From the NCBI GenBank assembly GCA_002377605.1, contig DFQD01000096.1, positions 1-54,847 of the forward strand: a stretch of DNA of 54,847 bases. The letters are read 5' to 3'. Origin of the DNA: Gammaproteobacteria bacterium UBA3498 (GTDB taxonomy: Bacteria; Pseudomonadota; Gammaproteobacteria; Pseudomonadales; Pseudohongiellaceae). The notes under the pieces are model-generated. The model was given only the letters and a program-made list of their open reading frames with translations. It did not search any database and was not told the origin of the DNA. Below, in pieces: positions 2,779-53,628 of the stretch (its first letter is position 1; every line of letters begins with the position of its first letter). The translations under genes and the position numbers were made by a program.

Positions 2779-4530
2779 TTATTCCTGATAGTCGGTTTGT
2801 TCACCTTCACGCGCATCGAGTGTACGCGCAGCACTTAAAGTATTAGTCATACCATAATTGCCTTCGTGGCATGCATACTCAACAAGCTCATATTGACTAT
2901 CGTCTCTTATGAAATTGAACATACCACTCCAGGGTTCGGTCCACACAGCTGGATCTTCAACTGTAAATTCATAGCGCAAAGTATCAGGACCGGTGCGAGT
3001 AAAACGCTGAGTTAACCTCATATCGGCACTGGATCCGAGATAAGAAGTTCTACCATTAAGATTTCTCACTTCAATTACTAGCGTGTCACCTTCCCAACGA
3101 CCATGAGAATCTCCAAGCCAAGTTTTAAGTCCATCACCAAAACCTTCGCGAGGCTCAGTAGAAATGATTCGAGTTTCATGAATCATTTCTTTTTGAATCG
3201 CGATGTTGCCTGGACTCTGAATAATCTGTAGACCGTTGTTATAAATACTTGGCATCATCATGCCAACTGGCCCACGAGTTATGCAGCGCACATAAGTACC
3301 TAAGTCTTCAGGTGTTCTGGCACGCTGTGGTGGAATTCTTGGTGGCGCATTGGCAACTAATTGCTTATACGCCTCAGTCGTTTCAGGCAATTGTCCGTTT
3401 GGCGGATCAATAATCATTGCCGCCTGCGTGGAAGGCGCAGACCTTACATAACCCAGGGTAGTATCACGCCATTCCCGATCGTAACCCCAGATACTGTTTA
3501 GTGTTCCTCTTTCACGACGCGCGGCTGCTTCCTCCGGAGTTAATTCTCCAGCCTCACCAGCGCCGACACCCCGCTGCAAGGGAATACCATGTGCTGCATC
3601 GGCAGTCCAGATACCTTGGAAATCTGGCTCACCCCAAGGTGTTCTTGGCACAACGTAAAGTTCTTCAGAATCACTGTTGTCTGCGGTGAATGCTTCTTCC
3701 TCGATTCCTTCCCAACCCGGTTCTACAACAGCGATCATCACGCCATCAGGTCCAAGAATGAAAGCCTGCTTAGCGTCAGAGCGGCCACGCTCTGGAACCA
3801 TAGGGTCCTGTCGAAAATCAACATTGAGTTGGTTCATTTCTGCAGCAGTTGCATCCAAATCCGCCACCTGGAAACCAATATGATCGATAGTTCGACCCTG
3901 AGTAATACCTGGTCGACCGTCGTTAAATTGGGTTGCCAGTAGCCAGATATCGCCGAAGCGGACGCCGTCTAACATGCCTTTCAAGCTTTCACGTTCACCA
4001 CCTAGCACTTGGTTATACCAATCAAGTGCCGCCACTGCATCGACTGAATTCAAATGGATGTGATGAAACCCAATTACAGCATCATCCTGCACCAATTCGA
4101 TTTTAGTTCCCCATGGATCGGTGATGAAAGCGATCTTAAATAGCCCAGGTATATCGCGAACCAAAGCGCCGTCATCGAATCGAATCAAACGAACTCCAGA
4201 GCCACGTACACCTACTGACTCAAGTTCAGCCATTTTCGCGTCGAGATCAGGTACAGAAAAACCAATATGATCGACAGCAGAACCCTGACTCCCGCCAACT
4301 GTTCGACCTACGAAAAACTCGATATTGGTTTCACCACAAACAACTGCATCGTTTCTGCCAACTACTCTTTCACAATCCAAATACTCTTCATACCAACTCA
4401 CTGCCTCGTTGGTGCTGGAAAGTGCTATCTGAATGTGGTTTGGAGTAGCGGCATTAAGTGCGAATGGAAACGCTATTACTATAGCAACGATTAGCTTAAT
4501 GCTACTTAGGTTTATGGAACGACACTTCAT
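2779..4530 (-). CDS. Exported fusion protein: two VOC/glyoxalase-type modules plus a C-terminal domain of the uncharacterised PDLQGVW/ACHEGNY family (copy 1)
   Basis: Start placed at ATG 4530 (MKCRSINL...), with GGAGG 8 nt upstream; the track start at 4545 lies upstream of that RBS. Signal peptide ...AFPFALNA. Duplicated VOC signature DHIGFSVPDLDA / DHIGFQVADLDA. Then PDFQGIW, YVRCITRG, QIIQ, RWEGDTLVIEVRN, QRFTR, DPAVWTEPW, VEYACHEGNYGM. Confidence 0.8.
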   Translation of the reverse strand: MKCRSINLSSIKLIVAIVIAFPFALNAATPNHIQIALSSTNEAVSWYEEYLDCERVVGRNDAVVCGETNIEFFVGRTVGGSQGSAVDHIGFSVPDLDAKMAELESVGVRGSGVRLIRFDDGALVRDIPGLFKIAFITDPWGTKIELVQDDAVIGFHHIHLNSVDAVAALDWYNQVLGGERESLKGMLDGVRFGDIWLLATQFNDGRPGITQGRTIDHIGFQVADLDATAAEMNQLNVDFRQDPMVPERGRSDAKQAFILGPDGVMIAVVEPGWEGIEEEAFTADNSDSEELYVVPRTPWGEPDFQGIWTADAAHGIPLQRGVGAGEAGELTPEEAAARRERGTLNSIWGYDREWRDTTLGYVRSAPSTQAAMIIDPPNGQLPETTEAYKQLVANAPPRIPPQRARTPEDLGTYVRCITRGPVGMMMPSIYNNGLQIIQSPGNIAIQKEMIHETRIISTEPREGFGDGLKTWLGDSHGRWEGDTLVIEVRNLNGRTSYLGSSADMRLTQRFTRTGPDTLRYEFTVEDPAVWTEPWSGMFNFIRDDSQYELVEYACHEGNYGMTNTLSAARTLDAREGEQTDYQE

Positions 4531-4594
4531 GGTGCGAACCTCCAATTGGTTAGTCTTTATGCTTTTAAATTCCGTTAAGCTTGAACAATTGTTT

Positions 4595-5425
4595 TTAATC
4601 TTCCGATTCTTCTCTTTTCATTAAATGACCGTACAAAATCTCTTCAGAGAATTCGACGCATTTGTATTCTATTACTCGCGCATTTGGTTCAAGACGTCGA
4701 TATAAAGGCATACGAATTTGCCAAGGGCGAGTAAAAACTGTTGGGTCTTCGATTGTTGCCTCATATAACATAGCATCGGCACTGATTGGCGTGTAGCGTT
4801 CAGTCACAATCAGTGAACTGCTGGCAAAGTTTCCTGCTCGGTCAAACCAGGCTTCGCCATAAAATCCCCGAGCATCTACTACTAATGTATTGCCTTCCCA
4901 ATGACCATGGGAACGACCCATCCAGGTATCTAATGGAGCCGGTTCCGGATTTTCTACATTCATATGAATAGTGCGATTCGCTTCGGCAAACCCATAAACA
5001 ATCATCATCTTGTCGGTGCCTTGCAGAATTTGAAAGGGGTAGGGCAAGTACGTGGCTCGAGGTACTCCGGGTAAATAACACTTGGTTTCAGGATCACCAG
5101 TAGGCCTGCTATCCCAGTTGGCCTGCTTTTGTTCCAGGGCCCAATCCTGATAAGGAATCTCTCCTCCTACAACAACGCCCTGGCCAGGAGGCACTGCACC
5201 TATTGCGCCCATTTCTGGTAACCCTGCACTAGCTTCATGGTCCTGAAGATCCCAGTGGGCAGTGCCTATCGCCTGCCAAACACCGTTGATATCGGGGTTG
5301 CCATCCCAGGCTAGTTCAGGTTGGTAGTTACCGATCTCCTGCGCTATAGCTGAAATGCTCAAAAGGGAAGCAGCAAGAAACGCCTTGAAAGAAAGGAAAA
5401 CAGTGGGCTTAAGTCGAATTATCAT
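4595..5425 (-). CDS. Exported protein, short divergent member of the same uncharacterised family (copy 2)
   Basis: 276 aa. Signal peptide ...SISAIAQE. Motifs PDINGVW, ETKCYLPGVPR, FQILQ, HWEGNTLVVDARGF, ERYTP, DPTVFTRPW, and C-terminal IEYKCVEF in place of ACHEGNY. Confidence 0.75.
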   Translation of the reverse strand: MIIRLKPTVFLSFKAFLAASLLSISAIAQEIGNYQPELAWDGNPDINGVWQAIGTAHWDLQDHEASAGLPEMGAIGAVPPGQGVVVGGEIPYQDWALEQKQANWDSRPTGDPETKCYLPGVPRATYLPYPFQILQGTDKMMIVYGFAEANRTIHMNVENPEPAPLDTWMGRSHGHWEGNTLVVDARGFYGEAWFDRAGNFASSSLIVTERYTPISADAMLYEATIEDPTVFTRPWQIRMPLYRRLEPNARVIEYKCVEFSEEILYGHLMKREESED

Positions 5426-31155: not shown

Positions 31156-32124
31156 ATGAACTTGAAAAAAAAGATTGTATGCATTGCTGCTGCAAGTTTT
31201 CTTTTTATGACATCCGTAAATTTCGCGGATGTTCCGCGCACTAGCTGGGGCACGCCAGATTTACAAGGAGTATGGACTGGAGCAACAGTAACGCCACTAG
31301 AAAGACCCCAGACATTAGAAGACAAACCTTTTCTAACCGAAGAAGAAAGGCGCATTATTGAGAAAGATCGGGAAGATTTCTTTTTATCTCGAAGTGCAAA
31401 TCCTGATCCAGGAACACCTGGAGGATATAATCGCTTCTGGTTAGATCCCGGCACAGTAACCTTAGATGACGGCCGCAGTTCATTAATCGTCGACCCACCA
31501 AGTGGTCGCATTCCGTGGCATCCGGAAGAGAAACAATGGTCAGATTCACAGTCTGCTCGTTATGGTGTCGGTCCGTTTAATGATTACACTGATCTAGATA
31601 CAGGTGAGCGCTGCATATCAGATGGCATCACTATGGTTGCATTGCAGCCCTACAACATGAATTACCAAATCGTGCAAACAGAAGATACGATCATTATCGC
31701 TCACGAGATGTATCATGAGTTTCGCGTTATTCCTCTTGATGATCGACCATTTATATCCGACAAAATCGGACAGTGGTTAGGAGATGCCCGCGCCCATTGG
31801 GAAGGTGACACTCTAGTAATAGAATCAAGAAATTTTGCTGACAAGCGTCATTACTATTGGGCATGGCCCTGGCGCAGTGTTCGAGGCAGTCTTACTCTAA
31901 TTGAAAGATTAACTCGATTGGATGAGACAAACATGGATTACGAGGTAATTTTGGATGATCCGGAATTGTTTACTCAGCCATGGACAATTTCCGCACCCAT
32001 GACTATAGATCAGGCGTCTCGCGGAGTGACAGCAGGCCCTCTTTTCGAGTTCGCCTGTCATGAAGGCAACTACGCGCTCCCAAATGTGCTGCGAGGTGCA
32101 CAAATGGAATCTTCACCTGATTAA
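31156..32124 (+). CDS. Exported protein of the uncharacterised PDLQGVW/ACHEGNY family (copy 3)
   Basis: 322 aa. Signal peptide ...MTSVNFA. Motifs PDLQGVW, TPLERP, LIVDPPSGRIP, GERCISDG, YQIVQ, MYHEFRVIPL, HWEGDTLVIESRNF, ERLTR, DPELFTQPW, FEFACHEGNYAL. Confidence 0.8.
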   Translation: MNLKKKIVCIAAASFLFMTSVNFADVPRTSWGTPDLQGVWTGATVTPLERPQTLEDKPFLTEEERRIIEKDREDFFLSRSANPDPGTPGGYNRFWLDPGTVTLDDGRSSLIVDPPSGRIPWHPEEKQWSDSQSARYGVGPFNDYTDLDTGERCISDGITMVALQPYNMNYQIVQTEDTIIIAHEMYHEFRVIPLDDRPFISDKIGQWLGDARAHWEGDTLVIESRNFADKRHYYWAWPWRSVRGSLTLIERLTRLDETNMDYEVILDDPELFTQPWTISAPMTIDQASRGVTAGPLFEFACHEGNYALPNVLRGAQMESSPD

Positions 32125-33305: not shown

Positions 33306-33779
33306 CTAGTCGTCTCCTATAACGGCTATTGCTTCTACTTCAACCTGTAACGCTGGGATTACCAATCCGGATACTCCAATTAAAGTTGAGGCGGGTGGAG
33401 GAATGTCGGCTGAAAAATAACGTGCCCTTGCCTCACTATATGCTGTTCGCCTTTCTGCATCTATATCTACTATAAAGCCTGTAAGTTTTATGACATCTGC
33501 CATGGTTGCACCTGCTGCCTCCAATTGCTCGACCATGTTGGCAAAGACCACATCCATTTGTTCAGCAAACGAATCAGCAATTTCACCGTTGCGGATACCT
33601 ACTTGTCCTGAAACGTAGATGGTTTTGACCCCATTAGAAGTTACGGTCGCCACTTGAGAAAAGGAAGCATTAGAGTTAATAAATTCAGTTTCTAAATCTG
33701 CTGCAAAACCAGAACTACCCATTATTAAGATGAGCAAGATGCCGCAACGTTGAATTAGCATTTTCATTGTTTTCTCCAT
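33306..33779 (-). CDS. RidA/YjgF/UK114-family protein with a signal peptide
   Basis: Leader MKMLIQRCGILLILIMGSSGFA. The likely start is ATG 33767, after GGAGAA. Motifs YVSGQVGI and C-terminal QVEVEAIAV. Confidence 0.8.
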   Translation of the reverse strand: MEKTMKMLIQRCGILLILIMGSSGFAADLETEFINSNASFSQVATVTSNGVKTIYVSGQVGIRNGEIADSFAEQMDVVFANMVEQLEAAGATMADVIKLTGFIVDIDAERRTAYSEARARYFSADIPPPASTLIGVSGLVIPALQVEVEAIAVIGDD

Positions 33780-33842
33780 CGAAGATAAAAAAGGGACGTA
33801 AGTATTTTAACTTCGCCCCTTCAAATTTTTTCTCAGTTAGAT

Positions 33843-34418
33843 CTATTCAGTATAAGGGTTTACATAACCTTCAGGTAATACACGCTCTGGATCCGGCCTT
33901 ATACTAATCATCTCTACACGCGAGTCCACAGAATGCCAACCGTGGAAAACTCCTGCAGGTATCACTACGATATCACCCTGCCTTACTTCACGGACCTGAC
34001 CATCGCCACGAGCTACAGAAGTTGAAAAACTTTCTCCCACCAACACTTCAACGATGTCGGTGTTAGATGGAATGTTATTTCTCCCTAGCAAAGTTCCTCC
34101 AGTAACTAACACGCCCGAGCCCTTAGTTATGTAGTAAACCTCGGACACATGGTTGTGAACGATGCCACTAACCGGTTCGTCATTGGCTTCGATCTTATCA
34201 CGGAACAGAACGCCAACCGCCACGTTGGAGTTACCAATGTCCACTACTTTAACCTGTCGATCGACTCGACCTTCAGGAGCGTGTATGACATTTTGCCATT
34301 CGCTATAAACAACATCGGTCGCTTCAGTTAGGTTCCCTTCGTGTGAAAGTGAAGTGAAAACGAAAAAGCTGCATGCAATTGCACCAGTAGTGGCAAACAC
34401 GTTTTTTAGCTTAAACAT
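33843..34418 (-). CDS. Exported cupin-domain protein
   Basis: Signal peptide ...SFFVFTSLSHE. Cupin motif 1 HNHVSEVYYITKGSG and motif 2 GDIVVIPAGVFHGW. Confidence 0.7.
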   Translation of the reverse strand: MFKLKNVFATTGAIACSFFVFTSLSHEGNLTEATDVVYSEWQNVIHAPEGRVDRQVKVVDIGNSNVAVGVLFRDKIEANDEPVSGIVHNHVSEVYYITKGSGVLVTGGTLLGRNNIPSNTDIVEVLVGESFSTSVARGDGQVREVRQGDIVVIPAGVFHGWHSVDSRVEMISIRPDPERVLPEGYVNPYTE

Positions 34419-34455
34419 AGCTCCTTCCTCTATTCTTAACTATTCTCTTATTTTG

Positions 34456-35412
34456 TTAATGAGATTGCTCTGCTGCTTTAGCTTCTGCTTCTTGTACCCG
34501 TGCTCCCATTAGTGCTCCTGTCATGCTGTAGTTGCCTTCATGACACGCATATTCGTAGATATGCCCAGAGTCGTCCCAGGTAAATGAAAATTCTCCGCGG
34601 AATTCATCATTGTAATAAACAGGATCATTAACAGTGTATTGGTAGAACAATTCGGTTTCAGACAAACGAGTGAATCGTTCGATTACGTGAGCTTTAGAAC
34701 TAATCAGCATAGGTCGACCAGTTGCCGCTCTTTCAGGCACTGTATCGCTGTAGTGTGTTGTCTCTACAACGAGTGTTTCCCCTTCCCAACGCCCAATAGA
34801 ATGACCTTCCATTGTTCGTATAACTTCTGGCCTAGTTGCGCCGTCCATGTGAATGACTCTTAAAGGTGAATTCTCTTCCGCTACGATTGCGATCTTATCG
34901 GGAGTCTGCACAAAACCATAGAACAACTCATAGGGAAATGCGCGCATTGGTGGAGCACCCCAACCTTCAATGCATCGTTCTACTCCGGGTCGCTGCTCCG
35001 GGCCATCGAATCCGGAATTGTCCCTAAAATAACCAAACGATGAATTGGAAATACCATGCTCGTTGTAAGGTAGTACGCCATCCTCTGGATACACCAGTAC
35101 TGAAGATCGGTACTCACCCTTCACAATTGCAAGTTTTAGAGGTCCAAAAATGTCAATATCTGGATCCGTGTTTCCAGCAAATGCAGCGTCATATGTTGCT
35201 TGAGCAAATCCGCTCGCAAACTCTGGCGACACTACTAATGGCGTACCTTCATATCGCTCCAGAGGTGTGATGAAGCGTGTACTCCATACGCCCTGAAAAT
35301 CAGGCTGCCCATGTTCATTGCGCGCTACCTCGTAAATACCTTCAGACTGTGCAAAACTCAATGAGCCAAATACCAACGCTACAACTAACGCACTTGCTTT
35401 TCTAAACCGCAT
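34456..35412 (-). CDS. Exported protein of the uncharacterised PDLQGVW/ACHEGNY family (copy 4)
   Basis: 318 aa. Signal peptide ...GSLSFAQS. Motifs PDFQGVW, TPLERY, VERCIEGW, RWEGETLVVETTHY, ERFTR, DPVYY, YEYACHEGNYSM. Its start lies 2 nt after the stop of copy 5, so the two are probably translationally coupled. Confidence 0.8.
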   Translation of the reverse strand: MRFRKASALVVALVFGSLSFAQSEGIYEVARNEHGQPDFQGVWSTRFITPLERYEGTPLVVSPEFASGFAQATYDAAFAGNTDPDIDIFGPLKLAIVKGEYRSSVLVYPEDGVLPYNEHGISNSSFGYFRDNSGFDGPEQRPGVERCIEGWGAPPMRAFPYELFYGFVQTPDKIAIVAEENSPLRVIHMDGATRPEVIRTMEGHSIGRWEGETLVVETTHYSDTVPERAATGRPMLISSKAHVIERFTRLSETELFYQYTVNDPVYYNDEFRGEFSFTWDDSGHIYEYACHEGNYSMTGALMGARVQEAEAKAAEQSH

Positions 35413-35414
35413 AA

Positions 35415-36440
35415 TTAATTAATTCCTTCTGCTTCTCTTCTCTCTTCCATTCGCGCGCCACGTAACGTATTAATCATGCCGTAGTTACCTTCATGACAAG
35501 CGTATTCGTAAATCTGTCCAGCAACTTTGCTCATTGGAACAATTGCTGAAATCCTTTCCGTGTAAGTCGATGGATCTTCGACTGTGAATTCATAGTTCAC
35601 AACATCGTAAGAAACTCGGGTAAATTTTTCTGTGAGCATCATGTCGTGGTTATTACCCCTACTCTGGAAACTAGCCTGCATACCATTGAAATTCTTAGTC
35701 TGCACTACCATGGTATCGCCTTCCCAATAGCCAATAGAATCTCCCGACCACAAACGAATGTCGTCACTCAACTCTGCTTTCTCAACCAGTGGAACTATTC
35801 GGGCATCGTGTACCATCTCAGTCATGATGACGAATGTATCTCTATGTTGAATGATCTGCATATTGTTGTTGTATAGGCTAGGCTGAAATGGAGGGCCAGC
35901 ATTAAAACCAACCAAACATCTTTCCGATGTGCCACGATCTTCAGGGCCATCTTTACCAATTCCACCAACGATAAACCTTACCGGTCTCTCACCGGTGATG
36001 TCCGGACCGAGCCCACCAGCAATTACCGGATTGCCTTCAACCGCTTCCGGTAGACGACCGTTTAATGGATAGACGATATGAGAAGTACGGACGTTATCAC
36101 CTAGCGTACCCATTTCTATCCAAAACGTGTTGTAACCGCGAGGCGTTTGCCCTGAAGGCGGAGGTTCTGGATCGACAACTAGCTCGGCTTCGCGAGCATC
36201 AGCCAATGCTGTCATGCGAGCTTGTCGTTCAATCTGCTCCTGAACTTGTTCCGGCGTCAGAAATTCTTGTTCACCGAATCGTTCTGGCCTTTGCATCGGT
36301 GTGCTGGAACTGAAATTCCACACGCCCTGCAAGTCGGGCTGATCGTATTCCGTTCTGGGAACCTGGTAATCTGATTGTGCTGTAGCAGTGCCGCAGGCCA
36401 CTGCCACTGCATAAAGTAATATCAAGAATCGTAGCTTCAT
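35415..36440 (-). CDS. Exported protein of the uncharacterised PDLQGVW/ACHEGNY family (copy 5)
   Basis: 341 aa. Signal peptide ...ACGTATAQS. Motifs PDLQGVW, TPMQRP, SERCLVGF, MQIIQ, MVHDARIVPL, YWEGDTMVVQTKNFNG, EKFTR, DPSTYTE, YEYACHEGNYGM. Confidence 0.85.
   Translation of the reverse strand: MKLRFLILLYAVAVACGTATAQSDYQVPRTEYDQPDLQGVWNFSSSTPMQRPERFGEQEFLTPEQVQEQIERQARMTALADAREAELVVDPEPPPSGQTPRGYNTFWIEMGTLGDNVRTSHIVYPLNGRLPEAVEGNPVIAGGLGPDITGERPVRFIVGGIGKDGPEDRGTSERCLVGFNAGPPFQPSLYNNNMQIIQHRDTFVIMTEMVHDARIVPLVEKAELSDDIRLWSGDSIGYWEGDTMVVQTKNFNGMQASFQSRGNNHDMMLTEKFTRVSYDVVNYEFTVEDPSTYTERISAIVPMSKVAGQIYEYACHEGNYGMINTLRGARMEERREAEGIN
36313..36377 (-). repeat. Left arm of a 65-nt near-identical inverted repeat (inside the copy-5 coding 5' end)
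   Basis: Its reverse complement matches 36715-36779 at 62/65 positions, including a 47-nt perfect core (36325-36371 versus 36721-36767). Confidence 0.9.
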
Positions 36441-36610
36441 TTGTTTTACCCCCCATTGGTGAGCTTGAATAGTAGAATAAATGCCTAGAGAAGAAATATA
36501 CAGTAGATTTTCCGATACAACTCTCGAAAATACTGTGGTTTATCGCCCTGGAACAGTCTGAAATTCAGGGTTTTTCTCAGAACATTGGTATTTTCATTGA
36601 GCCTCTTTTG

Positions 36611-36628
36611 TTAAGCTCTAAAAGAATA
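36611..36628 (+). promoter_or_regulatory. Conserved upstream motif TTAAGCTCTAAAAGAATA (partner at 31124-31140)
   Basis: See the partner feature. Lies 20 nt upstream of the GTG start at 36649. An AGGAG RBS lies between the motif and the start. Confidence 0.35.
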
Positions 36629-36648
36629 AAAACTAAAGGAGTAGAACA

Positions 36649-37644
36649 GTGAAAAAGTTGATCTCCTGCCTGGCAGGCGGCTTTATTGCCCTGACAAGCC
36701 CCATTCTTGTTGCTCAATCCGATTACCAGGTTCCCAGAACGGAATACGATCAGCCCGACTTGCAGGGTGTTTGGAATTTTGCTTCCCATACACCAGTGCA
36801 ACGTAACGAAAGTCTGGGGGATCGCGAGTATTTCACTACTGAAGAAAATGAAGAGAATCGTGAGCGTTCGGTTACAACTTTTGAGGCAAGAGCTGAATCT
36901 CATTTTGACGGTGTAGGTGGTTACAACTCCTTCTGGTACGAGCGCGCAACAATTGGTTACGACTTACGTACTTCATTAATAACTTACCCAGAAAATGGTC
37001 GTATTCCTCCTGCTGTAGAGGGCGCATTTATGCAAGTCGGTGGAGTTAGTCAGGATTTCCCCAGCGAAAGACCAGTACGATTTGTCGTTGGCGGAATAGC
37101 TAAAGACGGTCCGGAAGATCGAGGACTATCAGAACGTTGTATAGTCGGTTTTAATTCTGGTCCTCCTTTTATGCCCAGTGCATACAACAATAATGTGCAG
37201 CTAATTCAACATCGGAACCATGTCGTTATTCTCACAGAAATGATTCACGACGCCCGTGTAGTACCTCTCGATCGCGATCACAGTCTCACTGACGACATTC
37301 GTCTCTGGTCGGGAGACTCAAGAGGATATTGGGACGATGACACCCTTGTAGTCGAAACCAAAAACTTTAATGGTCTAACCCAAAGTTTTCTTTCTTCGCC
37401 CTATGGAGATTCTTACAACAAGTCTCTGGTGGAAAGATTCACTCGGGTAAGTGCGGACACTATTGAATATGAATTCACTATCGATGATCCAAGCACCTTT
37501 AGCGACAAAATAATAGCCATGGTCCCTATGACCAAAGTGGACGGGCTGCTGTATGAGTACTCGTGCCATGAAGGCAACTACGGAATGGCGAATATGATTC
37601 GTGGTGAACGAAGACAAGAATTGGATGCATTAGGCATTGATTAG
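36649..37644 (+). CDS. Exported protein of the uncharacterised PDLQGVW/ACHEGNY family (copy 6)
   Basis: 331 aa with a GTG start after AAAGGAG. Signal peptide ...TSPILVAQS. Motifs PDLQGVW, TPVQRN, SERCIVGF, VQLIQ, MIHDARVVPL, YWDDDTLVVETKNFNG, ERFTR, DPSTFSD, YEYSCHEGNYGM. By eye it is highly similar to copy 5 along its whole length. Confidence 0.85.
   Translation: MKKLISCLAGGFIALTSPILVAQSDYQVPRTEYDQPDLQGVWNFASHTPVQRNESLGDREYFTTEENEENRERSVTTFEARAESHFDGVGGYNSFWYERATIGYDLRTSLITYPENGRIPPAVEGAFMQVGGVSQDFPSERPVRFVVGGIAKDGPEDRGLSERCIVGFNSGPPFMPSAYNNNVQLIQHRNHVVILTEMIHDARVVPLDRDHSLTDDIRLWSGDSRGYWDDDTLVVETKNFNGLTQSFLSSPYGDSYNKSLVERFTRVSADTIEYEFTIDDPSTFSDKIIAMVPMTKVDGLLYEYSCHEGNYGMANMIRGERRQELDALGID
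36715..36780 (+). repeat. Right arm of the 65-nt inverted repeat (inside the copy-6 coding 5' end)
   Basis: CAATCCGATTACCAGGTTCCCAGAACGGAATACGATCAGCCCGACTTGCAGGGTGTTTGGAATTT. The three differences from the left arm are all synonymous third positions. Confidence 0.9.
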
Positions 37645-37824
37645 ATGGTCGATTCAGTCTCGACAGTTATTGTTCACATGGAGGCCAACCTCGATGGTTA
37701 CATCCAAAACAAAGACGGCAACATTTCCTGCTTAGTCACTCAAGTTAGTTTTGCAGCGACTCTATCCTTTCTTTACGATAGCCTTCCTACTTCTTATTGT
37801 TTGCTTGTGAGGATTCTAAATTGA
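37645..37824 (+). pseudogene. Possible remnant of a dihydrofolate-reductase-like (RibD C-terminal domain) gene; only the N-terminal ~25 aa are recognisable
   Basis: 59-codon ORF, just below the track cutoff, starting immediately after the copy-6 stop (TAGATG). It reads MVDSVSTVIVHMEANLDGYIQNKDGNISCL..., resembling the N-terminus of RibD_C/DHFR-like proteins (xxIVxMxxSLDGxIAxxDG). The remainder is unrecognisable and short. Confidence 0.3.
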
Positions 37825-52429: not shown

Positions 52430-52614
52430 TAACTTTGTAGTTGCTTACGCGATCCACTTCGAAATCTAAGAATATCAAAAACATTGATAACGATCATCGT
52501 ATTCAGTGGTGAAGTTAACGCATAATTGTCACCTGTTGATGCGACATTGCGCCCCAAGTCAATAGGTTACAAAGAAGCTATAATGCACCCTGAATTTTAA
52601 TCGGTGAATTGTAT

Positions 52615-53628
52615 ATGCGGTTCCTACTAGCTCTAATACTTGGCGCTCACGTTATTGCAATTAGCCATGCAGCAACGTCAGCTGCGACTAATATCGGCTC
52701 TTCCAGCCAGGGAACCGCGCCGCTAAATGAATTTGGTCGGCCTGATTTTCAGGGCTATTGGTTCTTCGGTTCAAGAACACCTTTGCAACGCCCCTCGAAT
52801 CTGGGAGAAAAACAAACCTATACCATAGAGGAAGCCCGGGAGCTCGAACAGCGGATGCAGGAACAATTAGATCGTCAAGATGCACCGCTCGATCCTAATC
52901 GAGGCGCGCCTGAAAAAGGCGCAAGGATTGGTCAAGAAGCAGATGATGCATTTTTAGGTCACTTTGTCGAAGCGAAACTGTATCCAATCGATGGACAATA
53001 CAAAACATCGATCATAATGGATCCTCTAGACGGACGAATCCCGAGAAGAGAAGGGTTCATGGATTTTAATGCAAAGCGACGCGCCATTGGCCTAGCTGAC
53101 ACTGATGGACCTGAAGGGCAACCCTTATCTGGGAGATGTTTGATGTTTGGTGCTGCCGCTCCATCTCTTACACCGATGATGATGAACCCGAACTTACAAA
53201 TAGTTCAGACAGAAGACTATCTAATGATAATGACCGAAATGATTCATGACGCACGTATTATCAGAATTGGTGATGAACATTTCAAACATAATATTCCACA
53301 ATGGATGGGGGATTCAGTTGCCCATTGGGAAGGCGATACCTTGGTGGTTCACTCCAAAAATTTTCGACCGGAACAATCTTCTTCTCGTTCGATTATGATT
53401 TCAGAAGATTTCGAATTAATTGAGCGTTACACCTTAATTGGAGATGACGAAATTTATTATGGGTTTACGGTTCATGATGAACAAGCATATACCCAGCCAT
53501 TCAGTGGAGAACGCATACTCTCGCGCAATGCACCCGAAGAAAAAGTCTACGAGTTTGCCTGCCATGAAGGTAATTACTCTTTACCTGGCATATTGGCTGG
53601 TGCTCGACGCCTAGAAAGCGAAGAATAG
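52615..53628 (+). CDS. Exported protein of the uncharacterised PDLQGVW/ACHEGNY family (copy 7)
   Basis: Start placed at ATG 52615 (GGTGA 7 nt upstream); the track start at 52609 is TTG. Signal peptide ...AISHAATSA. Motifs PDFQGYW, TPLQRP, IIMDPLDGRIP, SGRCLMFG, LQIVQ, MIHDARIIRI, HWEGDTLVVHSKNF, ERYT, YEFACHEGNYSL. Confidence 0.8.
   Translation: MRFLLALILGAHVIAISHAATSAATNIGSSSQGTAPLNEFGRPDFQGYWFFGSRTPLQRPSNLGEKQTYTIEEARELEQRMQEQLDRQDAPLDPNRGAPEKGARIGQEADDAFLGHFVEAKLYPIDGQYKTSIIMDPLDGRIPRREGFMDFNAKRRAIGLADTDGPEGQPLSGRCLMFGAAAPSLTPMMMNPNLQIVQTEDYLMIMTEMIHDARIIRIGDEHFKHNIPQWMGDSVAHWEGDTLVVHSKNFRPEQSSSRSIMISEDFELIERYTLIGDDEIYYGFTVHDEQAYTQPFSGERILSRNAPEEKVYEFACHEGNYSLPGILAGARRLESEE

Follow-up and report, generated by a model that had tools for sequence, protein, structure and literature searches.

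The window analysed here is the entire contig DFQD01000096.1 (C155 in our numbering; 54,847 nucleotides (nt)) of Gammaproteobacteria bacterium UBA3498 (Pseudohongiellaceae, marine genus Pseudohongiella), a metagenome-assembled genome (MAG) that is 70% complete and consists of 250 contigs. It carries two divergently transcribed paralogous genes, copy 5 (c5; 35415-36440, minus strand), which encodes an exported protein of 341 amino acids belonging to no named family, and copy 6 (c6; 36649-37644, plus strand), which encodes a protein of 331 amino acids and begins with a GTG start codon. The 5' coding ends of the two genes, both delineated as open reading frames (ORFs) and by comparison with orthologs, share an inverted repeat that is almost perfect. 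Our conclusion, to which we assign a probability of about 0.88, is that this island of identity was left by a single recent copying event, in which ~34-50 nt passed non-reciprocally from c6, the donor, into c5, the acceptor, across a distance of some 350 nt. Comparison with orthologs demonstrates that the transfer took place, which gene gave and which received, how long the tract is and when, in relative terms, it was acquired. The 47-nt inverted repeat around the leaders and the intergenic region is regarded as a by-product of the copying event and is most likely a neutral consequence of it, with no function of its own.

The arm located within c5 (36313-36377, minus strand) is the reverse complement of the arm located within c6 (36715-36779, plus strand) at 62 of 65 positions. 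Each arm comprises a perfect 47-nt core, namely GATTACCAGGTTCCCAGAACGGAATACGATCAGCCCGACTTGCAGGG at 36721-36767 (+) in c6, which represents the donor sequence, and its reverse complement at 36325-36371 (minus strand) in c5, which represents the converted tract. Both arms begin at a codon boundary and encode QSDYQVPRTEYDQPDLQGVWNF immediately after the predicted leaders, in frame 0 of their genes (offset 69 nt in c5, counted from its start at 36440, and 72 nt in c6, counted from 36649), the spacer between the arms amounting to 337 nt from arm to arm or 349 nt from core to core. The three mismatches between the arms (TCA/TCC, GGC/GGT and GTG/GTT) are all synonymous. These properties of the repeat, i.e., its length and perfect core, the silent nature of the differences, the common peptide directly behind the leaders and the 337 nt bracketed by the arms, had been pointed out in a first-pass annotation of the sequence and were all reproduced in our analysis.

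The same annotation had described the identity as an island, and this description holds as well: the proteins encoded by c5 and c6 are 56% identical overall, nucleotide identity outside the core amounts to 60.1%, and the identity is thus not uniformly high along the gene pair. Over the whole c5/c6 codon alignment, the island included, the same codon is used at 91 of 185 identical residues, and within the core 15 identical codons occur in succession. The ERPVRF block, which the annotation had named among the other conserved protein blocks, is indeed written with different codons in the two genes, being encoded by GAG AGA CCG GTA AGG TTT in one of them and by GAA AGA CCA GTA CGA TTT in the other. 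Among the 528 pairs formed by the 33 members of this protein family in the genome, 47 nt is the longest exact run shared, the next-longest ones (29, 27 and 25 nt) being all situated at other strongly conserved protein blocks, mostly at the C-terminal YEYACHEGNY motif. The best match of the arm to any other paralog in the genome does not exceed 83%. The c5/c6 island is real and is no chance match.

The origin of the island was traced with a four-sequence test, in which the sister lineage L036 (MAG LRMED-323, also designated G008) defines c5-type and c6-type bases at 342 informative sites over the length of the gene, where the c5 gene of the window possesses its own-type base in 298 cases, the c6-type base in 28 and some other base in 16. 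An unbroken series of ten c6-type sites occupies codon-alignment columns 81-114, and apart from one pair the other c6-type sites lie isolated along the gene; no run of ten or more was obtained in a permutation test with 200,000 shuffles, the longest one comprising 6 sites. Identity of c5 to its L036 ortholog is 93.6% outside the core and 35/47 inside it, while for c6 the corresponding values are 92.6% and 44/47, and at none of the three core sites (of 47) where c6 departs from its ortholog does c5 have its own-type base. Directly on both sides of the c5 tract own-type sites are found (TCA and GTG), i.e., the orthologous pattern is restored. The tract contains the codons ACG and GAC, which are specific to c6 of this lineage (c6 of L036 has ACA and AAC), and the donor was therefore the lineage's own c6. 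In the reverse four-sequence test, with c6 as the acceptor, no run of donor-type sites was revealed, hence the event was non-reciprocal. The outermost donor-type sites set the minimum tract at 36332-36365 (34 nt), and the nearest own-type sites set the maximum one at ~36322-36371 (50 nt). As a result of the transfer, c5 was altered from ...SDYTVPRTEYGQADLQ... to ...SDYQVPRTEYDQPDLQ..., with the residue replacements T to Q, G to D and A to P; among the c5 orthologs of the genus present in the database, this Asp (EYDQPD) occurs only in the cluster of this lineage. The locus displays the properties by which ectopic gene conversion is recognized, namely a discrete paralog-like tract, orthologous flanks, an unchanged donor and a tract beyond chance clustering. 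The proposal of recent gene conversion made in the first-pass annotation is strongly supported by these data, as the orthologs reveal that the c6 bases were gained by c5 in this lineage only.

Orthologs of c5 were found in L036, L048 (MAG CM1_200m.P40, BPDI01000015.1), L043, L037, L007 (also G017), L065 and L068, and those of c6 exhibit protein identity of 93% in L036 and 83% in L007. The divergent layout, in which the family copy c4 lies on the same strand as c5, opposite to that of c6, is also present in L036, L048, L043, L037, L007, L065-L067 and L068-L069. Within-genome identity of the c5 and c6 cores is 47/47 here and 35, 33, 31 and 30 of 47 in L036, L043, L037 and L007, respectively; it is low in L068 and moderate in L065, and in no related lineage compared are the arms near-identical. 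Three further assemblies, originating from other samples and spanning the locus with 99.7, 99.3 and 98.7% identity to the window, are L035 (European Nucleotide Archive (ENA) ERZ841489, a contig of 105.7 kb), L062 (Joint Genome Institute (JGI) 3300009103) and L063 (ENA ERZ2438759). They were found via exact look-up of c6 and of near-identical cluster representatives; exact look-up of the c5 protein returned no record, and L064 ends before the c5 arm. The converted c5 arm is exactly the same in L035, L062 and L063, so the tract is no artefact of a single assembly. The copying event occurred after the split from the ~93%-identical LRMED-323/CM1_200m.P40 lineage (L036/L048; ~7% DNA divergence) and before the diversification of the present strains, which are 98.7-99.7% identical. 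In L062 and L063, c6 has CAA at a position where c5 and the c6 of the window have CAG, which reduces the core identity to 46/47; the identity is therefore evidently not policed. At the 3' edge of the tract GGC is found in c5 and GGT in c6, opposite to the sister lineage, a pattern that would agree with a tract extending as far as this codon and a single subsequent substitution in c6.

Further comparisons with the relatives gave the following results. A strict seven-lineage diagnostic-site test found no fixed diagnostic sites in the island and hence has no power for older events, and exact scans for the 47-mer in genome contigs and for a 41-mer in metagenome contigs gave 0 matches, which is uninformative, as near-window records may be excluded from these collections. 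In L043 (JAPPOG010000015.1) c5 and c6 share an exact run of 20 nt, GACCTGCAAGGTGTCTGGAA, at the 3' side of the island, and the only 3 informative sites of this run, which are consecutive, all have the c6-type base in c5; a separate micro-conversion might have struck the same spot here, though the case is not statistically secure. L065 was considered as another independent event and rejected as not significant: its island identity is ~85%, with the same codon at 11 of 20 identical residues (counted by eye from the alignment), a share near the ~49% of the window c5/c6 pair. The c6 ortholog of L048 displays a 1-nt deletion (GGGC to GGG) with a frameshift, precisely where the island ends on its 3' side (window position ~36769). 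Since an alignment of the L048 locus with L036 requires 5 gap openings over 6 kb, the deletion probably reflects an error in sequencing or assembly and no pseudogene.

As regards the molecular route, a template switch during replication might have produced the patch, the nascent strand copying the inverted neighbour c6 and then switching back. Template switching between imperfect inverted repeats makes the arms identical via clustered substitutions (PMC8604942, PMC7202029). We give this route some preference over RecA-mediated homeologous conversion because the homology before the event was very low, with perfect runs of no more than 8 nt, and because the donor is nearby and inverted, the patch is short and bounded by microhomology, and an imperfect repeat was made perfect. 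Judging from the proxies of the pre-event state, c5 and c6 were ~70-75% identical at the island (about 74%) and ~60% identical over the gene. In L036, L037 and L007, c5 and c6 agree perfectly over no more than 7-8 nt at a time within 230 nt of the tract; the longest perfect run of the whole gene (L036 proxy) comprises 24 nt and lies ~420 nt away. Microhomologies that predate the event are located at both edges of the tract (5', GATTAC; 3', TGCAGGG (+GT)). The event raised the identity of the inverted arms, which are 349 nt apart and on opposite strands, from ~35/47, as in the sister proxy, to 47/47. The same c6-to-c5 transfer via RecA-dependent homeologous conversion, e.g., by repair of a break in c5 on the c6 template, is a possible though less probable route. 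A short non-reciprocal tract with restored flanks is the classic signature of conversion, and ectopic conversion between bacterial paralogs is well documented. However, efficient RecA exchange in Escherichia coli requires perfect homology over ~25 nt or more, and exchange between sequences so divergent is suppressed by mismatch repair; the pre-event identity was ~74% at the island and ~60% over the gene, with perfect runs of at most 8 nt near the tract. Moreover, at least one dispersed paralog (C147) is about as near to c6 as c5 is (63% vs 61%, protein search), and yet it was the adjacent inverted partner that took part in the event.

Several points weigh against the proposed history, or against the route preferred for it. 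The pre-event state was inferred from the sister lineage and not observed directly. The CAG/CAA and GGC/GGT sites can each be accommodated by one additional substitution, by a somewhat earlier event or by a second one; they add one or two steps and leave the history unchanged. Documented template switches favour short spacers of few to tens of nt (PMC8604942), compared with 349 nt here, a distance which would nevertheless still fall inside the single-stranded region of a bacterial replication fork. Finally, the two molecular routes are indistinguishable from sequence alone.

Apart from copying between c5 and c6, other origins of the island were weighed. That the tract is an assembly artefact, or an import from an unsampled foreign c5 allele, could be suspected in a MAG of such completeness and fragmentation, but is very improbable, given that the same c5 arm appears in three assemblies of other samples and sources, that only 6-10 nt are shared at the tract edges, too short for mis-threading of a k-mer graph, and that the tract matches the genome's own c6 at 47/47, lineage-specific synonymous states included; among the foreign c5 alleles seen, even the one most similar to c6 (P0123/L065) departs from the tract at many positions. 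The first-pass annotation had also offered selection at the level of nucleic acid as a source of the identity; the element under selection would be, e.g., a small-RNA target, a protein-binding site or an mRNA structure. Fifteen identical codons in a row are indeed a sharper pattern than protein conservation requires, and the strand with both arms folds into a very stable hairpin (predicted -115.5 kcal/mol, z = -13). Such a hairpin is, however, trivial, as for any inverted repeat, and the c5 and c6 mRNAs share the sense sequence, so they would not pair with each other. The comparison with relatives left this proposal unsupported: the island is not conserved, being missing from five or six other lineages with the same gene pair, and within the lineage L062 and L063 already differ at one core position. 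Maintenance by selection of this kind can hardly be credited.

It had been claimed, in addition, that recombination between the arms would invert the enclosed segment. The geometry of this claim stands, since both leaders and the stretch between the genes are enclosed in frame by the inverted repeats, so that leader and promoter would change places on inversion, and the 47 perfectly identical nt could now be sufficient for inversion by homologous recombination. No sign of its occurrence was seen: the same orientation is found in 4 of 4 independent assemblies (assemblies miss minor variants), and ~50 distinct c6-type and ~45 c5-type database proteins all keep their own leader type, with no chimeric leader-body protein among ~100 database representatives of the c5 and c6 orthologs. 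No genes of the Resolvase (PF00239) or Phage_integrase (PF00589) families, i.e., of serine or tyrosine recombinases, were detected in the contig or in the 70%-complete MAG, and the repeat is lineage-specific, stemming from a single copying event. Considering these facts, we find it most unlikely that the arms are recombination sites of a programmed invertible cassette of the inverton or shufflon type, which swaps promoter and leader. Slightly less remote, though still improbable, is the idea that the copying event has turned a fixed divergent pair into one that flips a 349-nt promoter/leader cassette at low frequency by homologous recombination. Were this true, each in-frame flip would exchange regulation and signal peptide between the paralogs, and we would be dealing with an accidental newborn switch resembling phase variation, caught at its origin.

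The divergent intergenic region between c5 and c6 (36441-36648) comprises 208 nt, and both promoters are presumed to be located here; their placement is only a presumption, since a consensus scan of 36300-36800 gave no sigma-70-like promoter site. A Shine-Dalgarno-like AAAGGAG is present at 36636-36642, 5' of the GTG start of c6. Two terminator-like matches of the same scan were disregarded, as both are inside the leader coding sequence of c6. Differences between the L035 strain and the window concentrate in the leader and the 5' untranslated region: just upstream of the c5 start, near its ribosome-binding site (36451-36453), L035 exhibits a 2-nt insertion and a substitution, and the c5 leader carries the replacement Y10S (36412). 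Downstream of c5, the order of c4, an exported cupin and RidA (33306-36440, minus strand) is kept in L035 and L066, and in the L068 lineage two shorter ORFs (226 and 84 amino acids) occupy the place of c4 ahead of the cupin. On the other side of the pair, a 59-codon ORF follows directly after the c6 stop codon (37645-37824, plus strand) and is called as a gene of 59 amino acids in L035 and L062 too. Its first 41 residues show 39% identity (E = 1e-11) to the N-terminus of an intact RibD_C-family protein, which adjoins c6 in the L068 lineage, and judging from this similarity the ORF is probably a remnant of a RibD_C-family gene.

Both genes belong to a family of exported proteins of ~330 amino acids with 33 members in this 70%-complete MAG. 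Besides c5 and c6, the window contains family copies at 2779-4545 (-), 4595-5425 (-), 31156-32124 (+), 34456-35412 (-) and 52609-53628 (+). Neither c5 and c6 nor four other copies from the window matched any Pfam or NCBIfam family, a profile search of the family against the PDB gave no match, and all its database relatives are annotated as hypothetical proteins. Characteristic motifs are PDLQGVW near the mature N-terminus and YEYACHEGNY near the C-terminus, and the invariant residues include P36, G40, W42, C164, C306 and E308-G309-N310. Matches to the family at E <= 1e-40 were obtained in 24 of 24 Pseudohongiella genomes searched, with 12-43 per genome, and in 0 of 16 genomes belonging to other families of this order; MAGs of Vicinamibacteria, Woeseia and Gemmatimonadota contain more distant members. 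An AlphaFold (AF2) model of c6, built from an alignment of 24 sequences, is of moderate quality (predicted local distance difference test score (pLDDT) 62, predicted template modeling score (pTM) 0.68). The beta-rich C-terminal half of this model weakly resembles barrels of the fatty-acid-binding/retinol-binding type (best E = 4e-3, template modeling (TM) score ~0.5 on the target), a resemblance that may serve as a lead only.

The locus thus provides a clean, well-dated case of a short patch transferred between ~60%-identical paralogs in an uncultured marine bacterium, in which the donor, the acceptor, the direction, the boundaries and the microhomologies are all readable from natural genomes. 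It shows that neighbouring inverted paralogs of a massively expanded family can swap a few codons without long homology, which bears on the diversification of expanded families and on clusters of substitutions that are misread as positive selection. A false lead is removed at the same time, the repeat being neither a regulatory element nor a programmed switch, and it is the protein family that is of greater biological interest than the repeat.

Among known systems, the tufA and tufB genes of Salmonella and E. coli are inversely oriented paralogs that are ~99% identical throughout and continuously homogenised. As in the ectopic conversion of this pair, one paralog took the sequence of the other non-reciprocally and the flanks keep the orthologous pattern, and c5 and c6, being inversely oriented as well, would have the interval between them inverted by a crossover. 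In contrast to tufA/tufB, they are ~60% identical and bear a single patch of ~34-50 nt in one lineage, and the homology around this patch is too low for classical RecA exchange. With invertons (fimS, hin) and shufflons the locus has in common that inverted repeats flank a segment comprising a promoter and 5' coding sequence; it differs from them in that no recombinase was detected in the contig or the 70%-complete MAG, the repeat is not conserved and no assembly shows a second orientation, and in its one-off origin. The likeness to quasipalindrome mutation, described in E. coli (PMC7202029) and in coding genes of yeast (PMC8604942), consists in clustered substitutions that perfect an imperfect inverted repeat, a nearby inverted donor, microhomology at both edges and the replacement of amino acids in coding sequence. 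In the documented quasipalindrome events (PMC7202029, PMC8604942) the arms measure ~5-20 nt and lie from a few to tens of nt apart, whereas in c5/c6 34-50 nt were copied across a spacer of 349 nt, and the arms are homologous parts of two genes, unlike those of a hairpin within one gene. The event in c5 is an ordinary kind of mutation, of which this locus is an unusually clear example.

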